This document shows positions 1 through 28,404 of a DNA stretch of 64,000 nt, one piece after another. Made by a program: the position numbers and the translations under genes. The stretch spans positions 17,368 through 81,367 of the forward strand of contig JAGMDC010000002.1 of assembly GCA_023128895.1 (NCBI GenBank), in the 5' to 3' direction. Position 1 is the first letter of the stretch, and each line of letters opens with the position of its first letter. The notes beneath the pieces are model-generated. The model worked only from the letters and a program-made list of their open reading frames with translations, did no database searches and had not been told where the DNA came from. The stretch comes from Candidatus Parcubacteria bacterium (GTDB taxonomy: Bacteria; Patescibacteriota; Minisyncoccia; Minisyncoccales; JAGMDC01).

Positions 1-59
1 AATTTGTTTCCACGGGGCTGAAGTTGTTTTTATATCTTCTTTCATAATATTTTAAAAAG

Positions 60-980: not shown

Positions 981-1010
981 ATTAAAAATTTTTGGTTTGC
1001 CATTAAAGCA

Positions 1011-1033
1011 AAAACAGAGGTATTATCCTCTGT
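1011..1033 (-). terminator. rho-independent terminator following repeat copy 1
   Basis: Minus sense reads CAGAGG-ATAATA-CCTCTG followed by a U-run. Confidence 0.6.
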
Positions 1034-1045
1034 TCGTACACAATG

Positions 1046-1262
1046 GCAGGACATAGTAAACAACATTAGAACCATTATCCAGCGCCAAACCAAGTACATC
1101 CACATCCCCGACCTCTCTCTACAAGTGTCGCAAGCGTCACAAGGGCAGATTTAGTTTATTGATTACTCCCCCACCCCTCCACTAACTATTTCTATAATTG
1201 CCCAGCGATAGACTTTTTATTCAAAATTCAAAAATTCGGAAACGTCCCCAATTTTTCCCTAA
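1046..1262. repeat. ~215-bp direct repeat, copy 1 (partner at 10183-10377)
   Basis: Aligns end to end with 10183-10377 (ggcaggacat...cgtccccaatttttccc). Most positions are identical, with one ~19-nt indel. Lies in the 3' flank of the Cas4-like gene. Confidence 0.85.
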
Positions 1263-1278
1263 AATAAAAAACCAAAAA

Positions 1279-2031
1279 TTATTTTTCGTATCCATTGCGC
1301 GCATACCACCAAGCGCAATGCTCGCACCCTTCACCCGATTTGGGTATTTCATCGCTTTCCAAGCATTCTTTAATTTCATTAATCGTGGGCTCAACCCATG
1401 AATCATTGCCAGTATAAGGGATAAGAGCAACATCAAACTCAATTTTCTTATCAAACGCCTTTTGGTCATATTTTCCAGTACAATAAACAAAATATCCAGT
1501 ATCAGAAACTTTTAACTCATTTCTGCGCAAAAGCCACTGATATACTTCTATTTGTCTTTTATATCCATCATGGTATTTGCTCTCATTGTCCAACTCTGCG
1601 ATTGGATTATTTCTCGCTGTCGCCTTATAATCAACAACAATATATTCATTATTGCCATTTATCCATAAATCATCAATCGCTCCAGAAACCAAAATTCCTG
1701 TCGGCTTGTGCAGATATTGAATTCCTTCAAAATTTTCCCGCCATTCATTAATTTTTTCGTGCGAGACAGGTTTAGCGTCAATTCCATATTCTTTCTGCAA
1801 TGGATGTTGCGTATCTTTTGCCCTATGAACATCAAACTCTTGTTTCAGCTGATAATCTACCGCGCTATTAATCATAAACGCTGGAATTGAAGGACGCTTT
1901 GTTCCCAATTTATTATCAATGTAAAAACAACGCGGACACTGCTTGAATAAATCAATTTTAGATCTACTCAATTTCCAATTATTTCCGCCATAATTCCATG
2001 ACGAACTCCTTTTTGGATTATATTCATTCAT
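1279..2031 (-). CDS. PD-(D/E)XK nuclease, Cas4/RecB-like with Cys cluster
   Basis: 250-aa ORF. N-terminal CPRC and C-terminal CEHC (four Cys, as in Cas4/AddB Fe-S nucleases). Core D...VVDYK motif. Confidence 0.55.
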   Translation of the reverse strand: MNEYNPKRSSSWNYGGNNWKLSRSKIDLFKQCPRCFYIDNKLGTKRPSIPAFMINSAVDYQLKQEFDVHRAKDTQHPLQKEYGIDAKPVSHEKINEWRENFEGIQYLHKPTGILVSGAIDDLWINGNNEYIVVDYKATARNNPIAELDNESKYHDGYKRQIEVYQWLLRRNELKVSDTGYFVYCTGKYDQKAFDKKIEFDVALIPYTGNDSWVEPTINEIKECLESDEIPKSGEGCEHCAWWYARNGYEK

Positions 2032-2073
2032 AATTATTGATTGTTAATTATTAATTTTTTGTGTTTTTTAATG

Positions 2074-4872
2074 CTACCACTCGAATATATCAACAATATT
2101 TTCAATTGCGCCCTTAATACGATCAATGATGCCTTGTCGTTCTAAAATTCTCGGCTGTTCTGGTAATAAATCGGCAATAGATTGTTCGCGAGGTAATTTT
2201 TGTGTATATAAATATTCACCTATTAAGTCTTCAAATTTATCTAATGGAATATTTTCATCTTGCGCAACGCTTTTTAAATGGTCAGAACGCTCATTTGCCC
2301 AAAATTCGCTAAATGCTTTTTCAACATCATCTGACCTTTTAATATTCGGGAGATTCTCTTCAATAAATTTCCTAATTAGATCTTTCTTCTTGCGAAGTTT
2401 TACATCTCGATTAAAAATGCTTAAAATCTCTTCTGTTTTCTTTTCTCGCACAGCATTGGAACTAATATTTTTAAGTCCCGCAATCAAAAGAATAATATAG
2501 TCAAAATTTATAATATCTCGCACAGTAAGTTCAAGTTCAAAATCAATTTGATCAAGAATTGATTCCACGCCGTTTTCATTGTTTTTACGCTCCTCATAAA
2601 TATCTAAATATTTACTTTGATAATCATAAAATTCTTGTTCTGATATGCCAAGCTCACTGAATGAAAATTCTGCAAATGTTTCAAGTGACGATTTGATATG
2701 AAGTAAATCACGAAATGTTTTTACGAATACAGCTTTCTCTTCTTCTCCCTGTAAGTCATCCACAGAAATTACTGTCGGCGTTTTTTTTCGTAATTCTGCC
2801 AGTTTATTCTCAAATTCTTTTTTCTGTTCTTCATACGGCTTTTTGAAAACAATCTCTTTTGCATTTTCATCGCCAAAAAGAGCCAACGCTTTATCGGTCG
2901 CTTCTTTTAGATTTCTAAATGAAATAATATTTCCGTGTGGCTTGTCGGAATTAAACAATCTATTCGTTCGTGAGTATGCTTGAATTAATCCATGATAACG
3001 TAAATTTTTATCTACATATAAGGTGTTCAATCGCGGGCTATCAAATCCTGTTAAAAACATATTTACCACCAGCACAAGATCAACCTCTTTATTTTTAATT
3101 CTTGTTTGTAAGTCTCTGTAATAATCATAGAAGCGATTAGTTGAAAAATTTGTTGAGTATTGTTTATTATAATCAATAATACAATTTTCTAAAAAATCCC
3201 GTGAATGTTGGTCTCCAGGTGTTCCTTCTCCCGCAAATATATCTACATCAAGCATGTCCGAACTTTCGTCTTCGTTTGCATGATAAGTAAAAATAGTCGC
3301 AATTTTAAAATCATCTGACCTTTTATTCTTAAACAAGCTATAATATTTTTTCAAAACTTCAATATTTGAAGTCGCAAATAAAGCATTGAACTTTCCATTT
3401 TTCGTTTTTCTTTTCCAATCTGCCAATATGTATTCTGTAATTTTATTAAGGCGGTCATCACTTTCAAGAACTTCTCTTTTATCAATGCCCTTAACAAGAG
3501 CGTCGGCAAAAATATCAGCACCCAATGTGTCTGGATCTTTTTGTGTGTATCGTCCAACATATTCCACAGCAAAGCCAAGCACATTGTTATCAGATATTGC
3601 GTGAGTAATGATATACTTATGCAAACACTCACAAAACACATCAGCAGTTGTCACTCCTCCAACATTATTTTCGGCAAAGATAGGAGTTCCTGTAAAGCCA
3701 AAAAGTTGCGCCTTTTTGAAAAAACCTTTAATTCGCGCATGAGTTTGTCCAAACTGACTACGATGACATTCATCAAATATAATAACTACTTTTTTATCCG
3801 TTAAATATTCAAATTGTTTGAGATATGATTCTCGCCCAATAGCAATATCAAGTTTTTGAATTGTCGTAACAATAAGCTTTCTATTTTTGTCTTTAAGCTG
3901 TTTTACAAGATTGCGAGTGTTGTCAGTGCCGTCCACCGAGCCCGCAGAAAACGAGTTAAATTCTTTTGTTGTTTGAATGTCTAAATCTTTTCTATCCACC
4001 ACAAAAAGCACTTTTTTTACTTCTGGAATGCGTGATAATCTCTGACTGGTTTTATATGAGGTTAAAGTTTTTCCTGAACCTGTGGTATGCCAAATATAGC
4101 CATTCTTGCTTGATTCACGCACTCGCTTTTCAATATTCCTTGCCGCATAATATTGATATGGTCTGAGTACCATCGGAATTTTTAATGACTCTGCCAACAC
4201 AATATATTCAGCAATCATTTCAGACACAGCGCATTTTTCTAAAAATGCATCCGCAAATTTATCCAGCTGAGTAATTTTATTGTTTTGTTCGTCAGTCCAA
4301 TAAAATGTTTGTTCAAATGACTGCCTTGGATTGTTTGAAAAATACTTTGTATCAACCCCATTTGAAATCACGAATATCTGCACATATTCAAAAAGTGTTC
4401 CCGTAAATGAATGTTTATGATATCGCTGAATCTGATTAAACGCTTCTTTCATCTCCACTCCTCGTCGTTTTAATTCAATCTGAACAAATGGCAAGCCGTT
4501 TATAAGCAAGGTTACATCATAACGATTTTCGTATCGTCCAACTTGTGTAATCTGTTGCGCGACTTGATATTCATTTTTGCACCATTGTTCCATGTTAAAA
4601 AATCGCACCCAAAAAGTGCTTTTATCATCACGAGCAAGGACAAATCTATCCCGTAAAGTTTTTGCTTTGTCAAAGCGATCGCCCCTATTTATATGATTTA
4701 ATACCTGCGCAAATTCAGCGTCAGAAAATTTTGTTTGATTAAATTTTTCAATCTGCGTCCGTAGATTTGCAACCATTGCGTCAGAATCTTTCAATGCAAC
4801 AACCGAAAACCCCAACCGTCCAAGTTGTTCAATTAATGTCTTTTCAAGTTGTTGTTCAGATTGATGGGACAT
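2074..4872 (-). CDS. hsdR: type I restriction enzyme R subunit
   Basis: 932 aa. SF2 motifs TGSGKT and DECH ([10 protein letters not shown]). Last gene of the hsd array. Confidence 0.9.
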
Positions 4873-4874
4873 AG

Positions 4875-6038
4875 TTATTTATTATCATTTACAATAAATT
4901 GCGCTCTCTCATAAAGTTCATCATATGTAATAATTTCAATATTTCTAGAGTCTCTCCTAAATAATTCAAAAGTTTTTATTTTTATTTTTTTCTCTAAATC
5001 ATTTGAGGCACTTTCTAATTCATTCCAATTTCCAATTATTAGAATAGTTTTTGAATCATACGGTTTTTGTCTAATTTCGTTTCCGCGATCATCGTGTAAG
5101 GTCTCAGTCTCTAATCTCACTTGACCGCTTGCTTTTTGTTCTAAAATTTGAGAAGTTGCATCTGTTAAATCATTAGATAATTTCCAAGAATTCGATCTAT
5201 TCTTTTTAAATCCAAAAATTTTAGTTTCTGGTTTTTTTAATTCTACAAAAGTTACAAACTTTTTATCTCCTAATAAAAAATCTCCGAAAACACGGTTTGA
5301 TCCATCTGCTTCTCCTCCAGTAACTTGAAATTCTTTTTGTAAAACGCCTTGAAATCTATAATCTAAACCATATCCAAAAATCCACGAATTTTTATTAAAA
5401 AAATATTGCCAAGCAACCTCATCTTTTATTTTGTCATTTTTAACTACATCTTTTTTATAATCATCCAAAAAGTTTTCATAAAGAAGTTTCCTAAAAATTT
5501 CCAACTGATATTTTCTATATCCTACAGCAACAATATCTTTATCGGTTATGTTTTGCTTTAAAGTCTCTTCTATCAATTTAATGTCAGGATTTTTATAAAA
5601 TATATTTTTCAGTCTTGATATATCAGCTTGTTCAATTCTCGATTTTTTGTCATCTGGAAATTGAAGCAATACTATTGAATCTAAAAAATCCCTTAATTCT
5701 TTTATTTCTTTACCGACAAAAGAAAAATACATTTTATGAGGAGATCCTGTCGCTTTGCTATATCTTTGTAGTGTGAGAACATAAATTTTATTATTTATTT
5801 CTAACACCTTAGCAAGTATTTCTTGTTTTCCACTATCAGTTATCCTTAGTTGTATTACGCCTTTTTCTTTTACATCACCAAGTATCTTTTCTGAGTTTAT
5901 AATTTTGCTTACATATCGCAACGGAATAATCTCACCATCTTGTGTTGTGTGCTCAATTCTTTTACTAATATAAACCTTACTAGTTTTTTTGTTTTGAATA
6001 TAATCAGTTTCTTTTTCCATATTTTTTACATTACACAA
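4875..6038 (-). CDS. Shedu-like (DUF4263-type) PD-(D/E)xK nuclease domain protein
   Basis: 387 aa. Overlaps the hsdS stop by 8 nt and ends 2 nt before the hsdR start. The C-terminal half has [19 protein letters not shown] (D...ELK) and a terminal [13 protein letters not shown], the pattern I recognise from SduA/DUF4263. The N-terminal ~200 aa are unassigned. Confidence 0.55.
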
Positions 6039-7242
6039 ATAACCCTTGCATCAGCCCTTTTTTCCATTGCTCGGCTTGGGTGATTTGTTGTTGTTTTGAA
6101 TTTATTAAATTATCTATTGAAGTCAAAAAATCTGCGATTTTTTGTTGTTCTTTATAAATTGGAAAAGGTATTTTTATTTTTGAATATTCAGAAATCCAAA
6201 AACGCTTATGTTCTTCACCAAGACCAAATCTAATCCGTTGCATTGTCAAGAAGATAAATCTAATATCTGAAACCTTTTCGCTTCTATTCTTTAAAATTTT
6301 CATTGCGGAAGACTTAACCTTGAAAGGAATATCTACAAATTTTTGTGCTGTAGTAAAATCATCAAAAATAATTACAGGTAATTTCTCGGCTTCAAAAATT
6401 CCCTCTTTTTCATTTGTATATCCAAGTATAAAAGTTTTACCAGCAGTCAAAACAGGGGTGTTGTAATTATTATTATATTCTGTACTTTCAACAATATAGT
6501 TTGTTGGCTGTTCATAATCTAAAACCTCCCCTAATTTCTTTTCCTCCCACTCTGAAAAATTATTTCCTTTGTTATCTTTGAAACGGATTTCTTGGGCAAA
6601 GATTTTTTGCATCATTTTTCTCTTATAAAATTCAAGATTCTCTTTTTGCGCGCAAAGATTTTCAATCCACTCGTCCACCGCCCCTAAAAACTCAGCGATT
6701 TTTTGTTGTTCTGGGAGAGCTGGAAAAATCACTGGACACCTCAAAATTTCATTTTTTCGTAAATTTGTTTGACTTACTCCATTATCAAATTTCAAAAAAT
6801 ATTTATTACGATTTATAATCCGTATCAAAAATTGACTTATTATTTCTTTTGACTTAATCCCGCCAATTCGTTGATTTAGAGTATAAGCGCTATCTTTATC
6901 AATCAAAAAACATTTACCGATTGCTTTACCTTTTGGGATATCGCTCATAACAATAGCAATATCATCTTTTTTTAATGGTGAAATTTGATTATCCGAATAT
7001 TTTTTTACTTTACCGTCTTGCGAGATAAATTTTGAATTTACAACAACATATTTTCCATTTGCTGAAATATCTTGTTCATGAGCCTTGCCATTCCAAAAAT
7101 TCGCAACCTCTCCCAACATCTTCTCCTCCCACTCACCAGAAAAACCCGCAAAACGAAGTTTCGATATTTTTTGAGATTTTGCCTGCCTGACGATAGGCAT
7201 GGATTGTTTGATCTTTGTTGGCATATTACCTATTAGTATCAA
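6031..7242 (-). CDS. hsdS: type I restriction enzyme S (specificity) subunit
   Basis: 403 aa. Two variable halves, each followed by a conserved helix: LPEQQKIAEFLGAVDEWI and YKEQQKIADFLTSIDNLI. The start codon is uncertain (M1/M7/M15). Confidence 0.85.
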   Translation of the reverse strand: MILIGNMPTKIKQSMPIVRQAKSQKISKLRFAGFSGEWEEKMLGEVANFWNGKAHEQDISANGKYVVVNSKFISQDGKVKKYSDNQISPLKKDDIAIVMSDIPKGKAIGKCFLIDKDSAYTLNQRIGGIKSKEIISQFLIRIINRNKYFLKFDNGVSQTNLRKNEILRCPVIFPALPEQQKIAEFLGAVDEWIENLCAQKENLEFYKRKMMQKIFAQEIRFKDNKGNNFSEWEEKKLGEVLDYEQPTNYIVESTEYNNNYNTPVLTAGKTFILGYTNEKEGIFEAEKLPVIIFDDFTTAQKFVDIPFKVKSSAMKILKNRSEKVSDIRFIFLTMQRIRFGLGEEHKRFWISEYSKIKIPFPIYKEQQKIADFLTSIDNLINSKQQQITQAEQWKKGLMQGLFV

Positions 7243-7303
7243 CTAAAATTACCTTTTCGTTTATACAAGTCAAATAGTGTAAACAAAAATATTAAAAAAA
7301 GGA

Positions 7304-7696
7304 TTAAAATAAATCCTTGTATTTATCATAATTTTCTTTAATCTTCTGCTTCCATTTTGCTGTTTCATTGCCATTACCCAAATCATTTTTATGATAGACC
7401 AAAAGGACATAAACCATTTTTATATCCTTTTGAACGGCAATAATACATCTATTGCCAGAACCCTTTCTTGATTGCTTTGTCCCAGTAATACGAAATTCAG
7501 TTTTGATTATCCTGATATTCTCGGTTTTAATAATCTCTTCAGCAATTGAAGTCTCAAGTAAAGAGTCAATTCTTTTTAACTCTTCATTTATAGCTTGCCA
7601 TGTTATATCCCAATCTTTTTTATATTTCTTCTTAAATTTTTTAATAAAGTGACGTTCAGCGAAGTGTTCCGCCATTACTGAATATTTAGTAGACAT
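7304..7696 (-). CDS. RelE/HigB/Gp49-like toxin candidate
   Basis: 130 aa. Overlaps the upstream antitoxin-like gene by 11 nt. SRKGSGNRCIIAV...VYVLLVYHKNDLGN resembles the GKSGG-R-x-I ... L-x-Y-x-K core of RelE-fold toxins. Confidence 0.5.
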   Translation of the reverse strand: MSTKYSVMAEHFAERHFIKKFKKKYKKDWDITWQAINEELKRIDSLLETSIAEEIIKTENIRIIKTEFRITGTKQSRKGSGNRCIIAVQKDIKMVYVLLVYHKNDLGNGNETAKWKQKIKENYDKYKDLF

Positions 7697-8369
7697 ATTC
7701 TGGATCTTCTTGAGTTATTAATTCATAAGGAATTATTTCATCAGGAGAGCAAATTTTATAAGGCAACTGATTGTGAGTAAAATGAACAATCTCATTTGTT
7801 TTTCTATCTTTCCATTTTCTTGCAATTTTGCCAATTAATTTCATTTCTTCTTTTGATATTTCTTTAAATGTTCTTTTTCGCGAACTTTCATTTTCTGAAA
7901 TTAAAAGCATTTCATTTTTATGATCAATAGATATTTTGCCCGACGCTTCTAATTCATCTATCGCCCTAAAATAGATATCTGGCACTGGTCCATATTTAAT
8001 ACGACGATATTGCATACCGCTCATACTATTCAAATGATCATAAAACCAAGCGAAATCTGCTAAATATAGCATTTTGGCAAGCTTAGTTTTTAATATTTTT
8101 CCGTCTACTGATGAACCTTTTCTAACGTACGCTAATATCATTTCTTTATATTTTTCATTATTTGGTTTTGCCCCACTCTCAACTTCTTCTAAAGAAATAC
8201 CAAGAATATTAGATAATTTCACCATCTGAGAAAAATTAAGTTCTGTTTTGCCTTGCTCAAAAGAAATATAAGAAGACCGAGAAATTCCTATTTTTTCAGC
8301 AATTTCTTCTTGGTTTAAAACTTTTTCTATTCTTATCTTTTTTATTAATTTAAAATATTGATTAATCAT
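7686..8369 (-). CDS. XRE-HTH plus Panacea (DUF4065/SocA-like) domain antitoxin candidate
   Basis: 227 aa. N-terminal HTH (LNQEEIAEKIGISRSSYISFEQGK). C-terminal KLAKMLYLADFAWFY...IKYGPVP is typical of DUF4065. Confidence 0.65.
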   Translation of the reverse strand: MINQYFKLIKKIRIEKVLNQEEIAEKIGISRSSYISFEQGKTELNFSQMVKLSNILGISLEEVESGAKPNNEKYKEMILAYVRKGSSVDGKILKTKLAKMLYLADFAWFYDHLNSMSGMQYRRIKYGPVPDIYFRAIDELEASGKISIDHKNEMLLISENESSRKRTFKEISKEEMKLIGKIARKWKDRKTNEIVHFTHNQLPYKICSPDEIIPYELITQEDPEYVY

Positions 8370-8446
8370 ATTTTTTAATTATATATTAACTATGTCAAAA
8401 AGTCAAACTTTTAATGTCATTTTTTAAGACATACAAATAATTTGGA

Positions 8447-10024
8447 TTAAAACGGTTTGTCTATTTTTAATTCCTTGCAAAATCCAGCAATCTTACTTTG
8501 TAAATTCTTTTCGTCTGTGTTCAGTCTTTTTAAATTCTTGGATACAGAATCAATATCAACTATTTTCTCCTCTTTAAATGTATCAACATATCGCGGAATA
8601 TTAAGATTGTATTCATTTTCCTTAATCTCATCTAAACTTGCTTTGTGAGAATATTTTTCAATTTCTTTGCGAGATTTATAAGTATCAAAAATTTTTGCAA
8701 TATTCTCATTAGTTAGCTTATTTTGATTTTTCCCTTTTTCAAATTCCTTTGAAGCGTCAATAAAAAGAATATCCTCATCATCACGACGGCATTTTTTAAA
8801 AACAAGCACTGTCGCAGGAATTGAAGTCCCATAAAAAAGATTTGAAGGCAAACCAATTACTGCGTCAAGATAATTTTGTTTTTCAATAATATATTTTCTG
8901 ATATGGCCTTCTGCTCCTGATCTAAATAGCGCTCCGTGGGGCAACACAACCGCCATAGTTCCGTTATCAGCCAGATGATAAAGCATATGAGTTACAAAAG
9001 CGTAATCTGCCGCGCTTTTTGGAGCAAGCCGTCCATATTGCGAAAAACGATCATCATGCGCAAGTTGAGGGTCGCTATCACTCTTCCATTTTGTCGCAAA
9101 TGGCGGATTAGCAACAAGCGCCTCTGCTTTAAGGTCTGCGTGCATATCTTCTGTTAGAGTGTCTCCATGGCGAATATCAAAATTATCAAAATGCACCCCG
9201 TGTAAAATCATATTCATTCGCGCGAGGTTGTAAGTAATTGGATTGAGTTCTTGCCCATAATAACTTGCCACTTCGGTAAAATCACCGATGCGAAGCAACA
9301 AAGAACCTGAACCGCAAGTCGGGTCATAAACTGATCTCACTCGTTTTTTATCTTGTGATACAATTTGAGCCATTAGTCGCGATACTTGAGCAGGAGTATA
9401 AAATTCTCCTCCCTTTTTACCAGATCCAGCAGCAAATTCACCAATCAGATATTCGTAAGCATCTCCGAGAAGATCACTCTTTGCGTCTTCAAGATTAAAA
9501 TCTATTCCGCTCAACAATACAAGGACTTCAACCACAACATCATTTTTTTGATTTTCACGAGAGCCAAGTTTTGTAGAAGTTAAATCAACATCATCAAACA
9601 ATCCTTTGAAATCATCCTCGCTGGCAGTTCCCATTGAAGTTTGCTCTATCGTATTAAGAACATTTTTAAGATTTTCAAGGATAAAGGTGTCTTGATTTTT
9701 AATATTACCTTTTCCTTTTTTGACAAGATAAGAAAATAATTCCGTTGGTTTTAAGAAAAAACCGAGATGACCAATGCAGCCAGCTTTTATCTGTTCTAAA
9801 TATTTTTTACCCTCTTTAGTGTTTTCTTTTATTTCCGCAAATTCAAAATCCTCTGAAGAAAGAAGTGTCTCGTCAACATAACGTGCAAGCTTCTCAGATA
9901 AATATTTGTAGAAAATAAAGCCAAGAATATAGTTTTTATACTCATCGGCGTTCATTTTGCCGCGAAGCGTATTTGCCACACCCCACAACTGCTTTTCTAA
10001 TAATTGTTTTTGTTCTTCAGACAT
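8447..10024 (-). CDS. hsdM: type I restriction enzyme M subunit (N6-adenine methyltransferase)
   Basis: 525 aa. Motif I is DPTCGSGSLL and motif IV is NPPF (LVANPPFATKW). Confidence 0.9.
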   Translation of the reverse strand: MSEEQKQLLEKQLWGVANTLRGKMNADEYKNYILGFIFYKYLSEKLARYVDETLLSSEDFEFAEIKENTKEGKKYLEQIKAGCIGHLGFFLKPTELFSYLVKKGKGNIKNQDTFILENLKNVLNTIEQTSMGTASEDDFKGLFDDVDLTSTKLGSRENQKNDVVVEVLVLLSGIDFNLEDAKSDLLGDAYEYLIGEFAAGSGKKGGEFYTPAQVSRLMAQIVSQDKKRVRSVYDPTCGSGSLLLRIGDFTEVASYYGQELNPITYNLARMNMILHGVHFDNFDIRHGDTLTEDMHADLKAEALVANPPFATKWKSDSDPQLAHDDRFSQYGRLAPKSAADYAFVTHMLYHLADNGTMAVVLPHGALFRSGAEGHIRKYIIEKQNYLDAVIGLPSNLFYGTSIPATVLVFKKCRRDDEDILFIDASKEFEKGKNQNKLTNENIAKIFDTYKSRKEIEKYSHKASLDEIKENEYNLNIPRYVDTFKEEKIVDIDSVSKNLKRLNTDEKNLQSKIAGFCKELKIDKPF

Positions 10025-10106
10025 ATATTTTTTAACTTTTTAGTTTTAAAATTTTTAATCTTTGTTTTACTCTACCGCGAACGCGGTTAAAATTCAAGGG
10101 AAAATC

Positions 10107-10137
10107 AAAAATTCGGAAGTTGAGCTTCCGAATTTTT
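10107..10137. terminator. bidirectional hairpin terminator between repeat copy 2 and hsdM
   Basis: AAAAATTCGGAAG-ttgag-CTTCCGAATTTTT: a 13-bp stem with A/T runs on both sides. Confidence 0.6.
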
Positions 10138-10182
10138 GGTTTATTCTTAATTCGTAATTCTTAATTCGTGATTCTGTTTTTG

Positions 10183-10377
10183 GCAGGACATCGTAAACAA
10201 CGTTAGAACCATTATCCAGCGCCAAACCAACCATATTTATATCCCCGACCTCTCCCCACAAGGGCAAATTTAGTTTATTGATTACTCCACCACCCCGCCA
10301 CTCACTATTTCTGAAATTGCCCAACGATAAACTTTTTATTCAAAACTCAAAAATCAGAAACGTCCCCAATTTTTCCC
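10183..10377. repeat. ~195-bp direct repeat, copy 2 (partner at 1046-1262)
   Basis: Same sequence family as 1046-1262. The TTG-start ORF 10094..10324 is not conserved in copy 1, which has an in-frame TAG. Confidence 0.85.
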
Positions 10378-10405
10378 CAATACATCCACCGCAACGCAAG
10401 TGAAT

Positions 10406-10436
10406 AAAAATTCAAGAGCGAAGCTCTTGAATTTTT
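10406..10436. terminator. hairpin terminator downstream of the OLD nuclease gene
   Basis: AAAAATTCAAGAGC-gaa-GCTCTTGAATTTTT. Confidence 0.6.
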
Positions 10437-10538
10437 ATTTATTCCTTAATCCTTAAATATTCAGATCTAAAAAACTCAGCGTCAAACCTGCGCGCTTCTT
10501 GGACATTTGATTTTTTTATAATTGAAATCTGCGACATA

Positions 10539-12134
10539 TTATTTTTTCGGCGTTTTGGTTAAAAATTTTAATATTTTACTAACAAATATTTTGAAGTCTT
10601 TATTTGGATCGGTAATCATTTCTTTAATTAAATTATAAGGAAAGCCATCACTATTTTTGTTATAACTGCCCCAGCTTTCAAGTTCTCCATTTGGAACAAT
10701 AAAAATTCCATATATTTCTAATTCTTTAATTATATTCTCTTTTGTTTTTTTTCCATTGACACCTGATAAATTTTCTAACATTATTTTTAAATCTTTTTCT
10801 CCGCCTAACGCTTTATAAATTTTTGGTAATTTCTGATTTTTTTTCTTACTAGTAATAACATCATTATCAAAAATAAAAACCGCTTTTAATTCTGAATCTA
10901 CAAGGAATTTAGCTACTTCTATCGCTCTGCTAGCACCGCCAACATCAGTAAAAACAATATCTTTTTTAGAAAGTTCTTTTCTAAAAATCTCTCCAACTGT
11001 ATTTTCATAAAAGCATCTATCATTTGGCCCCTCTACAAAAATAGTGCCATCATAAAATAATGATTGAAGATATTTCTGCTGTTTTGTAGCTGGCGTAATT
11101 TTATCATCGCTAACTGAAAATTTTTCAAGTGGAATAATTTTTTTATGATCTTTTACATAAAAAATGTCTACCTCAATTTTATCTTCTCTGTTATCTATTA
11201 GACCAGAAAGAAATGTTGCATCGTGAGTTGAAAGAAACAATTGTTTTTTGTTTTTTTTGACAAGATTTTTTAATTCTTTAGATATATTAATTTTTTGCTT
11301 TGGATGGATAAAAACCTCTGGTTCATCAATAAAGATTATTTTTGAATCTGGATTAAACAAAGAAAAAAACAATTTTGCTCCAGCTCTCATTCCATCGCCA
11401 ACTTTATCAATAGTAAAAACTCCTTTATCTTTTTTAATTTCTTCAGCTTCGTCAAAAGTTTTTACAGATAATTCTTTTATTGATTCGGGTTTCGTTTTAC
11501 TAGCAAGTATCTCAATTATTGCTCCTCGGTGACTTGAAAAAAATAAATGATAACCAAAACATTTGAAAAAAACTTTATCCAAAGATGTTCGAAAATTTTC
11601 ATTTCGCACAATGACATTAATAATATCATTTAAAGGATTCTTGGAGTCAGTCATAAGTCTTTCGCCTTCAAGACCAAGCCGTTGTCTAGTGTCTTCATAT
11701 CCAATAAATATTCTATGGGTAAAATAACGATTAGGTAATTGTATGTCTTCCGCCCCGCTTTTTTTGTTTTCGGACAATAAAACCAACTTTTTATATGCAT
11801 CTTCGGAATATATATCGCTATCGTTATGAGATTGGTATGTTCCGATATTATTTTTATTGTGACTTAAGGTATATTTTTTTATTTCTTCACCACGATCATT
11901 CACTTCAGTATTTTTTTTAATATATCTTAATAAAATAGAGGCCTCATCTGGTTCCAGATTACTATTCTCTAAACCGGTAACCCAATAAGATGTAGATGAA
12001 CTTCCCTGACAAAAAAATTCTCTAATTTCGTTCATTAATGTTGTTTTGCCAACACCATTTGGTCCAACAAAGACGTTAATATCTCCAAATTGAAGCGGTT
12101 TACCATTTTTAAATTTACTTTGAGTTATTTTCAT
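10539..12134 (-). CDS. OLD-family ATP-dependent nuclease (ABC ATPase plus Toprim)
   Basis: 531 aa. Walker A is GPNGVGKTT and Walker B-like is IIFIDEPEVFIHP. C-terminal Toprim with IFVEGPNDRCFY and FIFDNDV (E ... DxD). Confidence 0.7.
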   Translation of the reverse strand: MKITQSKFKNGKPLQFGDINVFVGPNGVGKTTLMNEIREFFCQGSSSTSYWVTGLENSNLEPDEASILLRYIKKNTEVNDRGEEIKKYTLSHNKNNIGTYQSHNDSDIYSEDAYKKLVLLSENKKSGAEDIQLPNRYFTHRIFIGYEDTRQRLGLEGERLMTDSKNPLNDIINVIVRNENFRTSLDKVFFKCFGYHLFFSSHRGAIIEILASKTKPESIKELSVKTFDEAEEIKKDKGVFTIDKVGDGMRAGAKLFFSLFNPDSKIIFIDEPEVFIHPKQKINISKELKNLVKKNKKQLFLSTHDATFLSGLIDNREDKIEVDIFYVKDHKKIIPLEKFSVSDDKITPATKQQKYLQSLFYDGTIFVEGPNDRCFYENTVGEIFRKELSKKDIVFTDVGGASRAIEVAKFLVDSELKAVFIFDNDVITSKKKNQKLPKIYKALGGEKDLKIMLENLSGVNGKKTKENIIKELEIYGIFIVPNGELESWGSYNKNSDGFPYNLIKEMITDPNKDFKIFVSKILKFLTKTPKK

Positions 12135-12285
12135 AATTTTATCTCCAAAAATTCAATTTATTTTCCTTCGCCCACTTTTAAATTGGATTGAGAATTTGAC
12201 TGCTATGGGGGTTGACAAATTATATCAACATGATAATCTCTTAATAAGTAGGCATTATTATTCATAATGTCTATTAAAACAAGCG

Positions 12286-13098
12286 TCACCCGTTGTGGGT
12301 CATGGCTTGTTTTTTCTTTTTAAAAAATTTTTCTGCGATAGATCTTCTGCTGTCAAAAATTGTAGCTCTTATTTTATCTCCTGACAAAACATAATTTCTT
12401 GTTTCAAAACCGAGTTTATTTCTAAAAAATGATTTTTTAATTTTTAATTTCTGATACATAAAATTAAGAAATTTTCTTTTATAGGTATTTTGCTCGCCTA
12501 CCAAGCCATACTGTTTTTTAAGGTCATATAATATTGAACCTAAAATTAAATCTGTTAATTGCAATAAATCAGAAGATTTAGAATCTATTTGACAAACTCC
12601 CGCAACTGCAAATTCTTGATAATGGTCATTAACAATACCCTTGATTGAATCTTCTAAATTCTCACCGTCAGGCGTAAAATAATCATCTGCCAATAAAATA
12701 ATAATCTCGTCAGGGTTTTTACCAATAATCAGCTTTAGTAAAACAATAGTAAAATTTCTGTATACTTTATATAAATTATTTTGATAATGCCCAGTAAAAT
12801 CAAGTTCATCTTTGTTTAAAATAATACAATTAAATTTAACATCTTCTGTTATAAAAATATTGAAAAATTCTCTTGCTACGTCAAACCTAATCTTTCTATT
12901 TAAATCAGCCCATTTTAGTTCCTCGCGATAATTATATTTATCCCTAATTTTTCTTATACGATTATATAATTTTTGCGGTTTTCCACATTTAATTATTCCT
13001 AAAGCAAAAAATTTATCTCTCCCGCTATGAATTAATCCTGTCTCGTCAAGAAAGCAAAAACAAGTTTTTATATTTTTAAAATGTTTATTTATTGGCAT
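12286..13098 (-). CDS. DUF3800 family protein
   Basis: 270 aa. N-terminal CFLDETG signature and distal LLQLTDLILG, as in DUF3800. Confidence 0.6.
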   Translation of the reverse strand: MPINKHFKNIKTCFCFLDETGLIHSGRDKFFALGIIKCGKPQKLYNRIRKIRDKYNYREELKWADLNRKIRFDVAREFFNIFITEDVKFNCIILNKDELDFTGHYQNNLYKVYRNFTIVLLKLIIGKNPDEIIILLADDYFTPDGENLEDSIKGIVNDHYQEFAVAGVCQIDSKSSDLLQLTDLILGSILYDLKKQYGLVGEQNTYKRKFLNFMYQKLKIKKSFFRNKLGFETRNYVLSGDKIRATIFDSRRSIAEKFFKKKKQAMTHNG

Positions 13099-13407
13099 AA
13101 AATTTTATTTTCATATTTTTATTTCATTACTTTTGGTTCCCACTCTATAATTGGCTTTGTCGCATTCCACCGCGCTTCGCCCGACAGTTCTGGTTTATAA
13201 CTTGGATCAATCATCAAACTATAAGCTCCTTTTGGGCAAATCATTACTCGCAACTTGGGCATAAAAGCGGAAAAAATTTTCGCATAATTTTTTAAATATT
13301 TTTTAAATACTGTGCTGATTTTTATTTTTTATTATAAATTCAATCCAGCCTGCTCTCGCTTTTTCGCCGCCACAATTTTTCGCGCCAGCAAAGCTGACGC
13401 GCCACTG

Positions 13408-13812
13408 TTATTGATTTTTTGGAAAAAGATATTCTACGGCAATTCGCAACATCAAATAAATTTGCGCAATGGTAACACTTACTAAAAGTCGGAAACTCCA
13501 TTCTTCTAATTTAAAATTTAGAAATGCTGTAGCCTGCAAAAAAGCAAATGAAAAAATTACGAAAGTTTCTATACCTAAAAATAAGAGTAAAACTTTTAAT
13601 ACTAATTTTTTAAGTTTTATGTCTTGTTCGATATCAACATTTTTTAATTTTTCTCTTTTCGCTAATTCATCTTTTATTTTTACAGGCTTTCGCCCTTCAA
13701 TCTGAAATCCACTAGAAGTTTTAAGTAACTCGTTCAGTGTCGCTTTGGAAAATACCGGAATTTCGCGAATCAATTCGGACCTGTCCTCGAATTGTTTTTT
13801 CTTTTTTTCCAT
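13408..13812 (-). CDS. small two-TM membrane protein
   Basis: 134 aa. Charged N-terminal half and two hydrophobic helices (LVLKVLLLFLGIETFVIFSFAFL; LLVSVTIAQIYLMLRIAV). Starts 4 nt after the peptidase gene stop. Confidence 0.5.
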   Translation of the reverse strand: MEKKKKQFEDRSELIREIPVFSKATLNELLKTSSGFQIEGRKPVKIKDELAKREKLKNVDIEQDIKLKKLVLKVLLLFLGIETFVIFSFAFLQATAFLNFKLEEWSFRLLVSVTIAQIYLMLRIAVEYLFPKNQ

Positions 13813-13816
13813 ATTT

Positions 13817-14344
13817 CTAAGTTACAAGCCCTAATCTGCTTAATCTTATAGACATTGCTTCGACTGAAACATTAAATACTTGCGAGCACCCTTCAATATC
13901 CTTTAATTTTTCCCAAGCCTTTCTAACTAAATCGGCGGGCATAAGAAACGAAGCGGCGAAATTGTTTGCTTCAATTTCCATCTTTGTTGATAAACCCTTA
14001 TCACGCCTATACAACATATTAACTTTATCCAACACATTATCACTATCAACAATCATCTCTTTTTTAATTTCGTCTGAGTGCAAAAAATAATGTCCAAGTT
14101 CATGAGCAATAGTAAAATTTCGTCTAGTTGGAGGTTTTGTTTTATTAACTAAAATTATAAAAATAGATTCTTTGGGGAAAAACACAATAACACCTGAAAC
14201 GGATCCAGGTAATTTCTCAGTCAGCAGAATTTTTAAATCTTTTTTATCCTTTTGAATATTTCCAAAAGGATAGGGAGATAAACCTTCGGGGTTATACTGC
14301 CTTGAAAGTTGTTCCGCGTAATTTTGAATTTTTTCTGTGTCCAT
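13817..14344 (-). CDS. ImmA/IrrE-family zinc metallopeptidase
   Basis: 175 aa. HEXXH motif HELGHYFLH in a COG2856/DUF955-like context. Confidence 0.7.
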   Translation of the reverse strand: MDTEKIQNYAEQLSRQYNPEGLSPYPFGNIQKDKKDLKILLTEKLPGSVSGVIVFFPKESIFIILVNKTKPPTRRNFTIAHELGHYFLHSDEIKKEMIVDSDNVLDKVNMLYRRDKGLSTKMEIEANNFAASFLMPADLVRKAWEKLKDIEGCSQVFNVSVEAMSIRLSRLGLVT

Positions 14345-14454
14345 AATTAAAAAAGTAATTTTTGTTGATTTATAAATGCTAAATTTCGAATATCAATTTT
14401 TTCAAATTTTCTTTATTCTTTATCTTTTATTCTTGATTCATAATTCTATTTCAG

Positions 14455-14597
14455 CAGGGGGCGCCAGGATTCGAAGAGTTGCCACGCAGCACTCGCCGCC
14501 TCGCTTCGCTCGGCGCGGTTCGGGAGGCGGGTTCTCCCCACAGCGCCACAGTTAAAACAAATTTAACGCACCTGTGGCGCGTCAAATTTGTATTTTG
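14455..14597. repeat. GC-rich tRNA-flanking element A with a duplicated tRNA-Trp 3' end
   Basis: 14455-14475 repeats the T-loop-to-3'-end of tRNA-Trp (14598-14617), differing by one extra G. It encloses ~120 nt of GC-rich sequence that starts gagttgcc, contains cctcgcttcgctcggcg and ends in a 9-bp hairpin. Homologous to 63261-63399. Confidence 0.8.
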
Positions 14598-14668
14598 CAG
14601 GGGCGCCAGGATTCGAACCCGGAACAAAAATTTTGGAGATTTCTATGATGCCATTTCACCACGCCCCC
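14598..14668 (-). tRNA. tRNA-Trp (CCA)
   Basis: Manual cloverleaf. Acceptor GGGGGCG/CGCCCCU, anticodon loop CUCCAAA, T-arm CCGGG-UUCGAAU-CCUGG, G73. Confidence 0.85.
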
Positions 14669-15363: not shown

Positions 15364-15465
15364 GTTCCCTCGCTTCGCTCGGTCAAATTAAAAATTAAAA
15401 GTTAAAAGTTAAAAATGACAGAGCGAAAATCTTAAATTAAAATTATAAATATTTTTCGCAATGTG

Positions 15466-17981: not shown

Positions 17982-18683
17982 TTATTTCCAGCCCTTTGTT
18001 TTAAGGGCGTTTTTTGCCGCGTCTTCTTCAGCTTCCTGCTTGGAAGACCCCTTGCCTTCGGCTATCAATTCTTTGTCAAGAAATACTCCTATAGAAAAAT
18101 GTTTTTGATGATCCGGGCCTGTTTCTTTTATAACCTTATAATTCGGCGTAATGCTCGCTTTTTCCTGGGCTTTTTCCTGAAAACTGGATTTAGCGTCCTT
18201 GTACAGCCCAGCCTCAATAATATGGGGAAGCTTCTTCATTATATATTCTTTTATGAATTTTTGGCAAGTATTGTATCCTTGGTCCAGATAAAGCGCGCCT
18301 ATAAACGCTTCAATGGCGTCAGCCAAAATGAATTGCCGCGCTTTGCCGGTTTCTTTTTTTTCTCCCTGCGACAAAATTAGAAATTCGTTAAACCCGATTT
18401 CTTTCGCAACAAAAGAAAGCATTTTGGCGTTGACAAGAGCCGCGCGCCAGTTCGTTAACTCCCCTTCCGGCTTGTCGGGATATTTTTTATATAAGTCCTC
18501 TGTGACCACGAGTTCTAAAACCGCGTCTCCTAAAAATTCCAATCGCTCGTTATGGCCTAAATAAAAATTCGGGTTCTCGTTCAAATAGGACCTATGGATA
18601 AACGACTGCGTTAATAAATCCCTATTTTCAAATTTTATTTCTAATTTGTCTTCTAATGGAGAAAAATCTTTAATTTTATTCAT
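17982..18683 (-). CDS. rnc: ribonuclease III
   Basis: 233 aa. Signature ERLEFLGDAVL and a C-terminal dsRBD. Confidence 0.9.
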   Translation of the reverse strand: MNKIKDFSPLEDKLEIKFENRDLLTQSFIHRSYLNENPNFYLGHNERLEFLGDAVLELVVTEDLYKKYPDKPEGELTNWRAALVNAKMLSFVAKEIGFNEFLILSQGEKKETGKARQFILADAIEAFIGALYLDQGYNTCQKFIKEYIMKKLPHIIEAGLYKDAKSSFQEKAQEKASITPNYKVIKETGPDHQKHFSIGVFLDKELIAEGKGSSKQEAEEDAAKNALKTKGWK

Positions 18684-20236: not shown

Positions 20237-20308
20237 GGGCCTGTAGCACAGTGGTAATGCAACCGGAGTTGCACCCGGACAACGCAGGTTCGAATCCTGC
20301 CAGACCCA
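20237..20308 (+). ncRNA. tRNA-like RNA with a canonical elbow and acceptor but a non-canonical anticodon arm
   Basis: GGGCCTG/CAGACCC acceptor (C4-A69 mismatch). U8, A14, G18G19 and T-arm GCAGG-TTCGAAT-CCTGC are present. The anticodon region gives only a 4-bp CCGG/CCGG stem with an 8-nt loop AGTTGCAC, or alternatively a TGCAAC-CGGA-GTTGCA hairpin. Confidence 0.5.
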
Positions 20309-25706: not shown

Positions 25707-27455
25707 TCACCTGTGGAAAAGTTTTAGTATGCTGCTTAAAGATTGTGTGTTGAGAATATCTTTTTTCTCTGCCCAGCCGCGGCGCGCCTGCGCAATCCCT
25801 AACTCCATAAACTTCAAATGTGATATATTGTGCGCGTCAGAATTTATTACCATCTTTACGCCCATTTCTTTTGCGCGCCTAATATATTGGTCGTTCAAAT
25901 CTAATCTTCTCGGCTGTGCGTTTATTTCTAAAATTTTTCCAAATTCTTTTGCCGTTCTTAAAATTTTCTCAAAATCGCATTCATATCTGTCTCTTTTCTG
26001 CAAAATTCTTCCTGTCGGATGAGCAATAATATGAATATATGGATTCTTTATTGCTTTAATTATCCGTTCTGTCATTTGCTGCTTTGGCATTTTGAAATTT
26101 GAATGGATGCCGGCAATCGCGTAATCTAATTCTTTCAATGCTTTGTCGTTAATATCAATTGAGCCGTTATTCAGAATGTTTGTTTCAGCACCGTGTAAAA
26201 TTTGAAACTTGCCTGCCTGTCCGGTAGGCAGAAAACTTGAAACTTGAAACTTTTTATTAAGATTGTTGATTTCTTTGCGCTGTTGCGCCAGCCGTTTCTC
26301 GTCTAAACCATTGTCTATTTTCAAAAATTTGGTGTGCTCGGTAATGCCTAAATACTGATATCCCATTCTTATCGCTGTCCCCGCCATTTCCTCTATGGTG
26401 TTATTTCCATCTGACCAATTAGAATGGCAATGGAGGTCGCCTTTGATATTTCTATAAATAATAAGTTTGGGCAATTTCCCTTCTAAACTTGCTTTAATTT
26501 CTCCTTGATTTTCTCTAAGTTCCGGCTCTATCCAATCCATTCCTAAAATTCTATAAACCTCTTTCTCTGTTTTTCCGGCAATCATCTTCTGCCCTTGAAA
26601 AATACCATATTCATTAAGTTTTAACCCCTTTCCAATGGCAATTTTTCTCGTGGCAATATTATGCTCTTTGCAGCCGGTGAAATACTGCAAAGCAGAGCCA
26701 TAACTTTTTTCCCGCACCACCCGCAAGTCGCAGTCAAACCCCTGCTTCATCCGTATTGAGGAGCGGGTATTGCCTTTTGCCCAAATTTTTTCTACTCCCT
26801 GCATTGAAACAAAAAAATCCATAACTGGCTGCGGTTTCTTAGAAACAATCAAAATATCCACATCGCCGATTGTCTCTTTCATTCGACGCGTTGAACCAGC
26901 CACGTTTATTTGTTTGACCTCTTTCAGCGCTTTTAATTTTTTTAAAATTTCCTTAACTTGCGGCAGAATATCGCCAAGCAAAAACCTGCCTCTGCTCTTT
27001 TCCAAAAACGCGATGCCCTGTAAAATATTTTCTTCTGTTTTTTTTTGAAATCCCGGCAAGCCCCTGATTTTGTGTTTTTCCGCGGCTTTCTTCAAATCCT
27101 GAAGGTCTTTAATGTCCAAATGCTCATAAAGCGATTTTATTGTTTTAGGACCTATGCCTTCCACAGCAGTCAATTCTTCTATTTTCACAGGCATCTTTGC
27201 CTTTAATTTTTCATAATATCCTATTTTCCCTGTCTCAATATATTCTGCTATTTTCTTAGCAATATTTTTTCCAACCCCGGGAATTTTTTCCAGCGATTTT
27301 TGCCCGCCCTGCTTGTAAATCGCTTCTATGTCCTTTGCCATGTCGTCTAAAATAATCGCTGCTTTTTGATAAGCAAACGGCTTGAACTTTACTTCCTCCA
27401 TCTCTAAAAAATATCCTATCTCATATAATATTTGCGCAATTTCCTGATTTTTCAT
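25707..27455 (-). CDS. polX: family X DNA polymerase with a C-terminal PHP domain
   Basis: Likely start is MKNQEIAQILYEIG (M30). HhH repeats, IGDVDILIVS catalytic Asp pair, PHP motif HCHSNWSDG. Confidence 0.85.
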   Translation of the reverse strand: MKNQEIAQILYEIGYFLEMEEVKFKPFAYQKAAIILDDMAKDIEAIYKQGGQKSLEKIPGVGKNIAKKIAEYIETGKIGYYEKLKAKMPVKIEELTAVEGIGPKTIKSLYEHLDIKDLQDLKKAAEKHKIRGLPGFQKKTEENILQGIAFLEKSRGRFLLGDILPQVKEILKKLKALKEVKQINVAGSTRRMKETIGDVDILIVSKKPQPVMDFFVSMQGVEKIWAKGNTRSSIRMKQGFDCDLRVVREKSYGSALQYFTGCKEHNIATRKIAIGKGLKLNEYGIFQGQKMIAGKTEKEVYRILGMDWIEPELRENQGEIKASLEGKLPKLIIYRNIKGDLHCHSNWSDGNNTIEEMAGTAIRMGYQYLGITEHTKFLKIDNGLDEKRLAQQRKEINNLNKKFQVSSFLPTGQAGKFQILHGAETNILNNGSIDINDKALKELDYAIAGIHSNFKMPKQQMTERIIKAIKNPYIHIIAHPTGRILQKRDRYECDFEKILRTAKEFGKILEINAQPRRLDLNDQYIRRAKEMGVKMVINSDAHNISHLKFMELGIAQARRGWAEKKDILNTQSLSSILKLFHR

Positions 27456-27557
27456 AGTGTTGATTAATATTCCATTATATCCCAATATAAACAGAAACAC
27501 CAAATTAAAAAACGCCCGCAATGGGCGTTTTTTAATTTTCAATAACGAACCCTGATA

Positions 27558-27667
27558 TCTGGCGGCGACCTACTTTCGCGGAAAACCACTATCATCGGCC
27601 CTAATGGATTTCACTTCCGAGTTCGGAATGGGATCGGGTGGAACACCATCGGTATTACCGCCAAATA
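27558..27667 (-). rRNA. rrf: 5S rRNA
   Basis: Minus sense reads TTTGGCGGTAATACC...CCCATTCCGAACTCGGAAGTGAAA...GTAGGTCGCCGCCAGA. Flanked by an extended processing stem. Confidence 0.85.
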
Positions 27668-28081
27668 TCAGGGTTCTATGGTTATTAATTGCCAGCTAAA
27701 GGAGTTTTAATATGATTTATTAGTACTGCTCGGCTAAATGTTTTACAACACTTACACCTGCAGCCTATTAACCTCATCATCTTTGAGGAATCTATGAGTC
27801 CTGATCTTAGGATAGGCTTCGTGCTTAGATGCTTTCAGCTCTTATCCTTGCCCAACTTAGCTACCCAGCGATGCGCCTGGCGGCACAACTGGTACACCAG
27901 AGGTTAGTTCACTCCGATCCTCTCGTACTAGGAGCAAATTCCTTCAAGACTCGACGCCTGCGGTAGATAGGGACCGACCTGTCTTACGACGGTCTGAACC
28001 CAGCTCGCGTACCTTTTTAATTGGCGAACAGCCAAACCCTTGGGACCTTCTTCAGCCCCAGGATAAGATGAGCCGACATCG

Positions 28082-28353: not shown

Positions 28354-28404
28354 AGGTGCCGAACAGAGCCGTTGATGTGGACTCGCGGGCTCTACCAGCC
28401 TGTT

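Follow-up and report, generated by a model that had tools for sequence, protein, structure and literature searches.

Integrase-borne elements of tRNA genes (tDNA elements: phages, ICEs, and genomic islands) and the cis-mobilizable elements (CIMEs), their att-flanked non-autonomous derivatives, are among the described systems closest to the element reported here. Those of the "T-loop sublocation" are flanked by a direct repeat that runs from the T-loop of the host tRNA gene to its 3′ end, and the tRNA stays functional because one copy of the repeat completes it. Patescibacteria have very small genomes and few recognised mobile elements. The stretch of DNA analysed here (the window) is 64,000 nt of a Candidatus Parcubacteria metagenome-assembled genome (MAG) of the Patescibacteria, with an overall GC content of 37%. 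Two of its six tRNA genes, tRNA-Trp and tRNA-Ile, bear a GC-rich, gene-less element that carries the same kind of repeat, and their host tRNAs are likewise completed by one repeat copy. The element belongs to a discrete family of ~100-140 nt that recurs at many different tRNAs, and this family is previously undescribed, large, and widespread in Patescibacteria.

The identity profile of the repeat, which extends from the T-loop to the tRNA 3′ end, is that of tDNA elements and CIMEs. The family further resembles them in that tmRNA-like genes are hit, copies accrete in tandem at one tRNA, and variable islands adjoin. In contrast to these systems, the element has no genes, and no integrase was found in the 29 open reading frames (ORFs) of the window that were scanned or at related loci. 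No attP-bearing free form was found in IMG/VR. At least 31 tRNA species are served by a single conserved body, which includes an antisense copy of host tRNA positions 49-73 as well as a core that covaries as RNA does. The sequence to the left of its putative crossover, GCAACUC, is dissimilar to the T-stem half-site. The repeat geometry is that of known tDNA integration, but the small size, the lack of genes, the single body, the antisense arm, and the covarying core are not described in any family tested or found. No counterpart is described for a body that combines its own target in antisense and in sense orientation.

In Rfam 15, no family matched the window at gathering thresholds, the element at E values up to 10, or three other loci; only the tRNAs were matched. 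A literature search retrieved neither the motif strings nor a description of the element. Group I introns in tRNAs of Patescibacteria are the subject of PMC13011429 and are unrelated to it.

The element at tRNA-Trp and tRNA-Ile

Both host tRNA genes lie on the minus strand (ARAGORN), and along that strand the two loci share one module order: tRNA, AT-rich hairpin, S′ arm, conserved core, and a second copy of the tRNA 3′ end. This second copy is termed copy B, and the corresponding part of the tRNA gene is copy A. ARAGORN calls the host tRNAs complete despite the insertion.

The host tRNA-Trp (CCA anticodon; Rfam tRNA, 55.5 bits) occupies 14597-14668 (-), and its positions 54-73 form copy A at 14598-14617 (-). 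It is followed at 14552-14596 (-) by an AT-rich apical hairpin with arms acaaatttgacgc and gcgttaaatttgt and then a T-run, as seen in the sequence and the fold. By sequence this hairpin is terminator-like on both strands, with a visible 13-bp stem and TTTGTTTT, and the terminator scan did not flag it. The S′ arm ctgtggcgctgtggggagaacccgc at 14527-14551 (-) is an imperfect reverse complement of tRNA positions 49-73, as supported by folds and by tests of cognate against non-cognate tRNAs. Its GGCGC pairs with the acceptor 3′ strand, its GGAGAA lies opposite the T-loop, and its CCCGC, the CCNNN block of the family, lies opposite T-stem positions 49-53. The conserved core at 14476-14526 (-) begins with CUCCCGAA and contains a hairpin, P2, at 14494-14518 (-), whose apex CC-GA-GC-GAA-GC-GA-GG lies at 14499-14515; a covariance-model match of 67.4 bits covers 14467-14541. 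The junction octamer GGCAACUC at 14476-14483 (-) directly abuts copy B at 14455-14475 (-), which runs from T54 of tRNA-Trp to the discriminator with one extra C. The original prediction had described this copy, with the extra base as a plus-strand G, and it is present in the sequence as described. Over 14450-14599, the GC content is 55-70% in 100-nt windows with a 50-nt peak of 78%, which bears out the GC-rich segment reported 3′ of tRNA-Trp.

The host tRNA-Ile (GAU anticodon; ARAGORN and Rfam) occupies 63401-63474 (-), and its copy A at 63399-63421 (-) extends from T54 to the discriminator plus CA. The AT-rich, terminator-like hairpin at 63363-63398 (-) is supported by its fold, and its stem (63372-63390) is flagged on both strands. 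The S′ arm atgtatggtgtggtgtggtgaggacctcc at 63334-63362 (-), seen in sequence and folds, is G/U-rich and pairs with the tRNA-Ile 3′ strand mostly through G·U; its UGAGGA lies opposite the T-loop, and its CCUCC lies against the T-stem 3′ strand CCUUC. The core at 63283-63333 (-) starts with CCCCGCG, ends with CCUUCGGGCAACUC, and contains P2 (GUUUCGCC GAGCAAAGCGA GGUGAAAC) at 63301-63327 (-). Copy B at 63260-63282 (-) is a 23-nt exact repeat of copy A, and tRNA-Ala (63173-63248, -) starts 12 nt past it. A covariance-model match of 63.7 bits covers 63274-63348, and the element is homologous to that of tRNA-Trp, as had been proposed.

The blocks shared by the two loci are not random by expected-count tests. 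The 18-mer TTCGAATCCTGGCGCCCC of the tRNA-Trp locus occurs exactly twice in the window against 0.03 expected, and CGCCGAGCRAAGCGAGG has four matches at up to three mismatches against 0.12 expected, its two exact matches being the two elements. The combination of GGCAACTC and a following T-loop is confined to the two elements. A covariance model made from metagenomic copies scores them at 67 and 64 bits (E ~1e-16) and no other window site above 15 bits. Every feature listed in the original prediction is present, and the repeats and shared blocks at both loci are real and far beyond chance. The two copies nonetheless differ substantially, most evidently in P2. The terminal hairpin and T-run of the original prediction are also present, but they lie between the tRNA and the GC-rich body and are terminator-like on the tRNA strand too.

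A family at the 3′ ends of tRNA genes

Homologues were sought in two scans, one of metagenomes and one of genome contigs. The metagenome family, gathered with a 23-nt exact pattern, comprises 95 loci, 88 of them true copies. Seven matches (L108, L121, L123, L143, L146, L175, L178) are due to chance and lie inside GC-rich coding DNA, while the remaining loci are AT-rich Patescibacteria contigs that bear the same module. Four true homologues (L002, L008, L022, L088) in three Patescibacteria MAGs came from the genome scan. A first pattern applied across genomes lacked specificity, and its 105 matches are mostly GTCAT(Y)CCGAGCGAAGCGAGG(R)ATC palindromic repeats, or matches by chance, from GC-rich soil bacteria. 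Covariance model R1, built from the copies, finds 103 copies in 547 kb, including diverged ones outside the search pattern.

Placement behind tRNA genes is the rule. Of 104 profile hits, 84 share the strand of a tRNA called by ARAGORN and follow it at 25-151 nt (median 54), and none is on the opposite strand; at least 31 anticodon classes serve as hosts. Most of the other profile hits are at contig ends or behind tmRNA-like 3′ ends. Some contigs carry several copies, such as three within 5.6 kb of L195, and the order tRNA-Ile, element, tRNA-Ala recurs in L122 and L162. The claims that each copy duplicates the 3′ end of its own host tRNA, and that one small gene-less family is found at different tRNAs, hold across the family: 55 distinct instances show an exact 11-40-nt repeat that joins the sequence after GGCAACTC to the tRNA 3′ end ~100 nt upstream.

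At L008, L133, L135, L150, L165, L166, and L198, copies stand behind 3′ ends that ARAGORN calls neither tRNA nor tmRNA. Examples are ...GGTTCGAGTCCTGCCCGCGGAGC in Saccharibacteria and ...CCCCGGAGCTCC elsewhere. Candidate hosts at these loci are tmRNA genes and tRNA genes with introns. The variant seen at L008 and L022 is carried by Saccharibacteria MAGs.

Copies A and B are at least 91% identical at positions 54-73; beyond these, identity is 84% at position 74, 65% at 75, and 47% at 76, after which it is at background. The junction is fixed between GGCAACUC and T54. This is the integrase-type identity block of the original prediction, running from T54 to the tRNA 3′ end. A template in the mature tRNA was rejected as the source of copy B, which has no CCA at 74-76. 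A tRNA-like cloverleaf or minihelix formed by S′, core, and copy B was also rejected, since the constant CAACUC before copy B cannot form its T-stem.

Homologues of the upstream NUDIX gene served as the synteny anchor for the tRNA-Trp site; the downstream ImmA gene failed as an anchor because it belongs to a mobile defence island. The window genome has an element at the tRNA-Trp site, and so do L211 (85% NUDIX identity) and L216 (74%). The copies in L211 and L216 are recognisably orthologous but decaying, with S′ eroded and the T-loop part of copy B lost. In L212-L214 (75% NUDIX identity) the site is empty, and the next gene comes directly after the tRNA. It is probably empty as well in L215 (85% NUDIX identity; from the ZHAN22-2 sample series, like the window genome), whose tRNA is identical to that of the window and whose trailer sequence matches the one after copy B of L216. 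Relative to the empty site, the occupied site gained the hairpin, S′, the structured core with P2, and a second T54-to-3′-end copy joined to GGCAACUC. Among the orthologues, A and B alter together, reading GGCGCC in the window, GGTACC in L211, and GGTGCC in L216, which points to gene conversion or constraint. Repeated insertion is seen in L188, where two adjacent elements differ in their P2 hairpins, in L211, where the second of two elements has a foreign copy B, and in tandem arrays at L002, L125, and L179. L120 holds a recombinant copy.

These loci bear on whether the ~120 nt could be scars, that is, the att-proximal ends left by deleted phages or genomic islands that had integrated at tRNA genes. 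The classical att shape of the repeat would fit this origin, as would the defence island right after the Trp element, the different one in L211, and the restriction-enzyme gene after tRNA-Ala. It is nevertheless very improbable, given ~100 copies of uniform compact size with the same two conserved boundaries, most of them with a native terminator, the following tRNA, or a housekeeping gene directly behind. The genome, metagenome, and viral scans revealed no larger element that ends in this way, and structural covariation is not expected of junk. The copies are many and discrete rather than the decayed ends of islands, the one between tRNA-Ile and tRNA-Ala being an example. A phage or attP origin was rejected after two IMG/VR scans without a genuine copy. 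The original prediction had proposed a search for further copies beside other tRNAs, for uninterrupted alleles, and for a covariance model, and each of these was obtained.

Miniature inverted-repeat transposable elements (MITEs) and palindromic repeats (Correia, RPE, REP/BIME, and the PATEs of IS200/IS605) are similarly small, non-coding, multi-copy, and hairpin-rich. They share with the family intergenic insertion, co-transcription, and single-strand hairpins that tolerate G·T. Unlike MITEs, the element lacks family-wide terminal inverted repeats, and its inverted and direct repeats copy each host tRNA instead. Its "duplication" has tRNA landmarks as its limits and measures 20-23 nt or more, as opposed to a fixed 2-10 bp, and its copies within one genome are diverged. 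Strand-specific hairpins and a junction after G53 are compatible with IS200/IS605 PATEs and REPs, but the flank occurs in duplicate, and the window showed no Y1/HUH gene.

The antisense arm and the conserved core

The S′ arm is the key feature missed by the original prediction. This segment of ~25 nt extends the apical hairpin into one long stem with the T-stem and acceptor 3′ strands in 48 of 52 instances, and the resulting continuous hairpin spans tRNA position ~63 to S′. In full-length folds, S′ is an imperfect reverse complement of tRNA positions 49-73. It consists of a variable stretch complementary to positions 73-63, a semi-constant GUGG, UGAGAA, and CCNNN. The UGAGAA stands opposite the T-loop UUCGAAU, with three Watson-Crick pairs plus tandem G·A, and CCNNN is complementary to the T-stem 5′ strand. 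The S′ duplex is more stable with the cognate tRNA than with non-cognate ones (-11.8 versus -8.1 kcal/mol, p = 3e-12). The variable T-stem positions 49-51 pair with CCNNN in 67% of cases versus 46% after shuffling, and 0 of 2000 shuffles reach the observed value. The apical hairpin varies in sequence by locus, is followed by a U-run, and resembles an ordinary terminator.

It is the tRNA-sense (minus) strand that is structured. On it are found the C(UUCG)G loop and the tandem G·A pairs. In the long hairpin, 54 pairs of tRNA G with U stand against 72 G-C pairs (43% of tRNA G face U), whereas 6 C·A mismatches stand against 247 C-G pairs (~2% of tRNA C face A). The hairpin also folds more stably on the sense strand than on the opposite one (-28.1 versus -24.8 kcal/mol, p = 2e-5). 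The excess of G·U over C·A and the stability of the sense-strand hairpin indicate that selection for pairing acts on the sense strand in single-stranded form, either RNA or top-strand single-stranded DNA (ssDNA). Folding energy of the whole element shows no strand bias; that of the hairpin part alone does. A plus-strand structured RNA with its 5′ end antisense to the tRNA, one of the readings offered originally, is disfavoured by the loop, the G·A pairs, the G·U excess, and the hairpin stability alike. Use of S′ as a primer-binding site for mature tRNA was rejected, as S′ pairs with the genomic trailer and not with CCA.

The core has the layout CCCCGAAU–P2–UGCCUUCGGGCAACUC, or in full NCCCCGAAU–P2–(A)UGCCUUCGGGCAACUC. 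Compensatory changes within P2 include UA to CG, GC to CG, CG to UA, and tandem G·A alternating with G-C/C-G. Five pairs are altered on both sides, and 0 of 500 shuffles reach the observed covariation score. A raw MAFFT alignment gave no useful consensus in RNAalifold. Copies found without sequence bias have P2 swapped for unrelated stems (CCCGCC-GCAG-GGCGGG and UUCCGCC-GAAG-GGCGGAA), lengthened, or deleted, with the flanking blocks intact. Although ORFs of 58-67 amino acids overlap the element, these indels, replacements, and deletions of P2 exclude protein coding.

The apex motif of P2 is also found outside the family. A lone CCGAGCGAAGCGAGG mini-hairpin lies at 15368-15384 (-) between tRNA-Thr and rpmG, 5 nt before the rpmG ATG. 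It scores 14.3 bits, matches model positions 29-43 only, and is not a full element; it may be an element remnant or a free-standing stable-hairpin module, and its GAGGG may double as the rpmG ribosome-binding site. Many GTCAT(Y)CCGAGCGAAGCGAGG(R)ATC palindromic repeats occur in GC-rich soil bacteria (Acidobacteriota, Armatimonadota, Bacteroidota, and others), for example at L004, L030, L043, L056, L058, and L065. The CCGAGCGAAGCGAGG mini-hairpin is at the heart of both these repeats and the element, and its tandem G·A and GAA are identical to those of the P2 apex, which suggests either that one stable hairpin module is reused widely or that the repeats form a superfamily of very broad extent.

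The RNA-type covariation of P2 and the invariant unpaired blocks beside it would suit a host function. In such an account the element is a cis-acting RNA, a selected 3′ extension of certain tRNA transcripts, and mobility is merely how it originally spread. The duplex of S′ with the tRNA 3′ end or with copy B might serve as a processing stem for RNase III or as an insulator between tRNAs; in another variant, the stem-loop of S′, core, and copy B is a stable small RNA that mimics the tRNA 3′ half. The strand-specific, G·U-tolerant conservation of S′ pairing, the identity of A and B held over long divergence, and the encoding of RNase III in the genome (window gene 17982-18683) agree with this account, and that enzyme could cut the 25-35-bp stems formed by S′. 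So does the repeated placement between tRNA-Ile and tRNA-Ala. Where tRNA-Ala starts 12 nt past copy B (window, L122, L162), read-through would be the simplest route to its expression. Host function is still rather unlikely, though a serious possibility. The element is present or absent at the same tRNA among related genomes, only two of six window tRNAs carry it, and the orthologues in L211 and L216 have decayed by erosion of S′ and loss of the T-loop part of B. Tandem and double insertions occur, and no conserved partner gene accompanies the element.

The S′ arm also invites comparison with guide-carrying mobile elements, namely group I/II introns, IS110 bridge RNA or seekRNA, the guide tetranucleotides of IS605, and TnpB/IscB. 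These too have an internal segment complementary to the surroundings of their own insertion point, and a target-dependent segment that adjoins a conserved structured scaffold. In contrast to them, the element has no Rfam 15 match and no recombinase or nuclease gene, its guide is one contiguous 25-nt antisense segment rather than bipartite loops that bind both DNA strands, and its host gene is unsplit with a duplicated flank. Compared with IS110 bridge RNA or seekRNA, it has a single antisense arm, no recombinase gene, and a 20-23-nt repeat versus a 2-nt core. Group I/II introns and known small ribozymes do not account for it either: the host tRNAs are complete and Rfam 15 gives no match.

A homing element directed by its own RNA or ssDNA guide would use S′ as a guide over positions 49-73 that spans the insertion point 53/54, as an intron guide spans both exons. 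The core would then be a catalytic or protein-binding scaffold, and the A/B repeat would result from insertion. That S′ is a contiguous complement of the joined positions 49-73, including the T-stem 5′ strand outside the repeat, is in keeping with this idea, as are the constant junction of GGCAACUC with T54 and the selection of pairing on one strand only. Matched S′ arms occur at 31 or more different targets, and a conserved core with a variable peripheral hairpin is found in small ribozymes and guide-RNA scaffolds. The idea is quite unlikely all the same. No ribozyme, intron, or guide-RNA family of Rfam is matched, and the scan of 29 window ORFs revealed no associated nuclease, recombinase, or reverse transcriptase. 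The tRNA is uninterrupted, S′ shows a conserved departure from perfect complementarity (UGAGAA opposite UUCGAAU), guide reprogramming is not accounted for, and a catalytic core of ~50 nt is speculative.

A broader version treats the element as a minimal programmable nucleic-acid machine. S′ would pair with tRNA 49-73 as sense DNA strand or RNA, and the ~50-nt core with CCCCGAAU and UGCCUUCGGGCAACUC would act as a catalytic or protein-recruiting scaffold. The machine would drive T-loop insertion or act in cis or trans as an "anti-tRNA" switch on tRNA folding or processing. It is an unlikely reading, and its insertion version, if true, would represent a new class of guide-directed homing element.

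Quasipalindromes and terminator hairpins extended by template switching offer a further parallel. The tRNA 3′ strand, trailer, loop, and S′ make up one long imperfect palindrome whose apical part resembles an ordinary terminator, but the conserved core, the fixed junction, and the second sense copy are left unexplained. An intrinsic terminator, as stem-loop and T-run, would cover the apical hairpin only, which is one part of the element.

Proposed insertion and masking, and the genomic neighbourhood

The best explanation, which could as easily prove wrong as right, is that the family is a non-autonomous element that enters the T-loop/3′-end segment of tRNA genes like integrase-type tDNA elements and hides the surplus tRNA end by S′/B pairing in transcripts. 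Its members would target the 3′ portions of tRNA and tmRNA-like genes, with which they would be co-transcribed. Entry would be a site-specific or short-homology (Campbell-type) event, catalysed by an enzyme supplied in trans, and would leave T54 to N73 on both sides, as with integrase-borne tDNA elements. In the read-through transcript, S′ would pair with copy B to close a stem-loop of ~20 bp that carries the core. This stem-loop would mask the surplus tRNA 3′ end, so that the real tRNA can fold. Gene conversion would keep the two sense copies alike, and selection on the single-stranded tRNA-sense strand would uphold the complementarity of S′. Template switching within the quasipalindrome of copy A, hairpin, and S′ is a candidate for the re-matching of S′ to each tRNA.

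Several results weigh against this masked-insertion explanation. The match of S′ to each new host tRNA is unexplained by a simple integrase or target-duplication model; indeed, neither a simple integrase model nor a decoy model accounts for S′. The conserved single-stranded blocks and RNA-type covariation fit host function equally, and the folding energy of the core alone favours neither strand. Pfam identified no integrase, transposase, HUH enzyme, or reverse transcriptase among the 29 window ORFs scanned, none was found adjoining the copies inspected, and the gene calls of related loci contain no integrase. Two IMG/VR scans for a free, attP-like, or circular form gave chance matches only. 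The left element boundary has no conserved sequence, and the exact 23-nt search pattern means that the conservation of that block is overstated. Moreover, the two window copies are substantially diverged and the Trp copy is orthologous across relatives of 74-100% protein identity, so that movement is rare or ancient and most copies are vertically inherited.

If this explanation is true, Patescibacteria harbour a common, so far unannotated class of tiny tRNA-linked elements. A body that holds its target in both antisense and sense form suggests either a novel mode of targeting, or of tolerating, insertion where the tRNA gene is essential, or a novel cis-acting RNA with one particular tRNA as its partner. 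For annotation, the surplus tRNA 3′ ends and the GC-rich islands are a potential source of error in gene calling and in the detection of att sites or genomic islands. The elements also constitute dispersed recombination substrates beside the defence islands that gather at tRNA genes.

Directly behind the Trp element, a defence island occupies window positions 1-14344. It encodes an ImmA/IrrE peptidase, DUF3800, an OLD-family nuclease, a type I restriction-modification system (hsdM, hsdS, hsdR) with an embedded Shedu SduA gene, an HTH-Panacea antitoxin-like gene, and a PD-(D/E)XK nuclease. At the corresponding place, L211 carries a different island (HTH plus MvaI/BcnI), and the relatives with an empty site carry housekeeping genes. 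After tRNA-Ala at the Ile locus, a TdeIII restriction-enzyme gene lies at 62249-63067.

The rRNA operon is unlinked, with the 16S end, tRNA-Ile, and tRNA-Ala at 63173-64000 and the 23S and 5S genes 32 kb away (27557-31262). Between 16S and tRNA-Ile there is a promoter-like site together with a hairpin that is terminator-like in both directions. The sole group I intron of the window is in the 23S rRNA gene (28088-28363). Besides RNase III, the window encodes a PolX-PHP DNA polymerase (25707-27542).

Other GC-rich sequences are present in the window. A tRNA with an odd anticodon ("tg") at 20237-20308 (+), called by ARAGORN and matched by Rfam tRNA at 49.9 bits, has a 106-nt GC-rich leader that starts at 20131 (up to 72% GC), contains a hairpin (CTCGGGGGA...TCCCCCGAG), and has no R1 match. 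This leader is a different kind of tRNA-attached GC-rich island. GC-rich intergenic blocks at 57037-57094 and 57190-57331 contain a long palindrome (GGGCGGGGCGGG ... CCCGCCCCGCCC) and a degenerate AAAGCGAGG motif.

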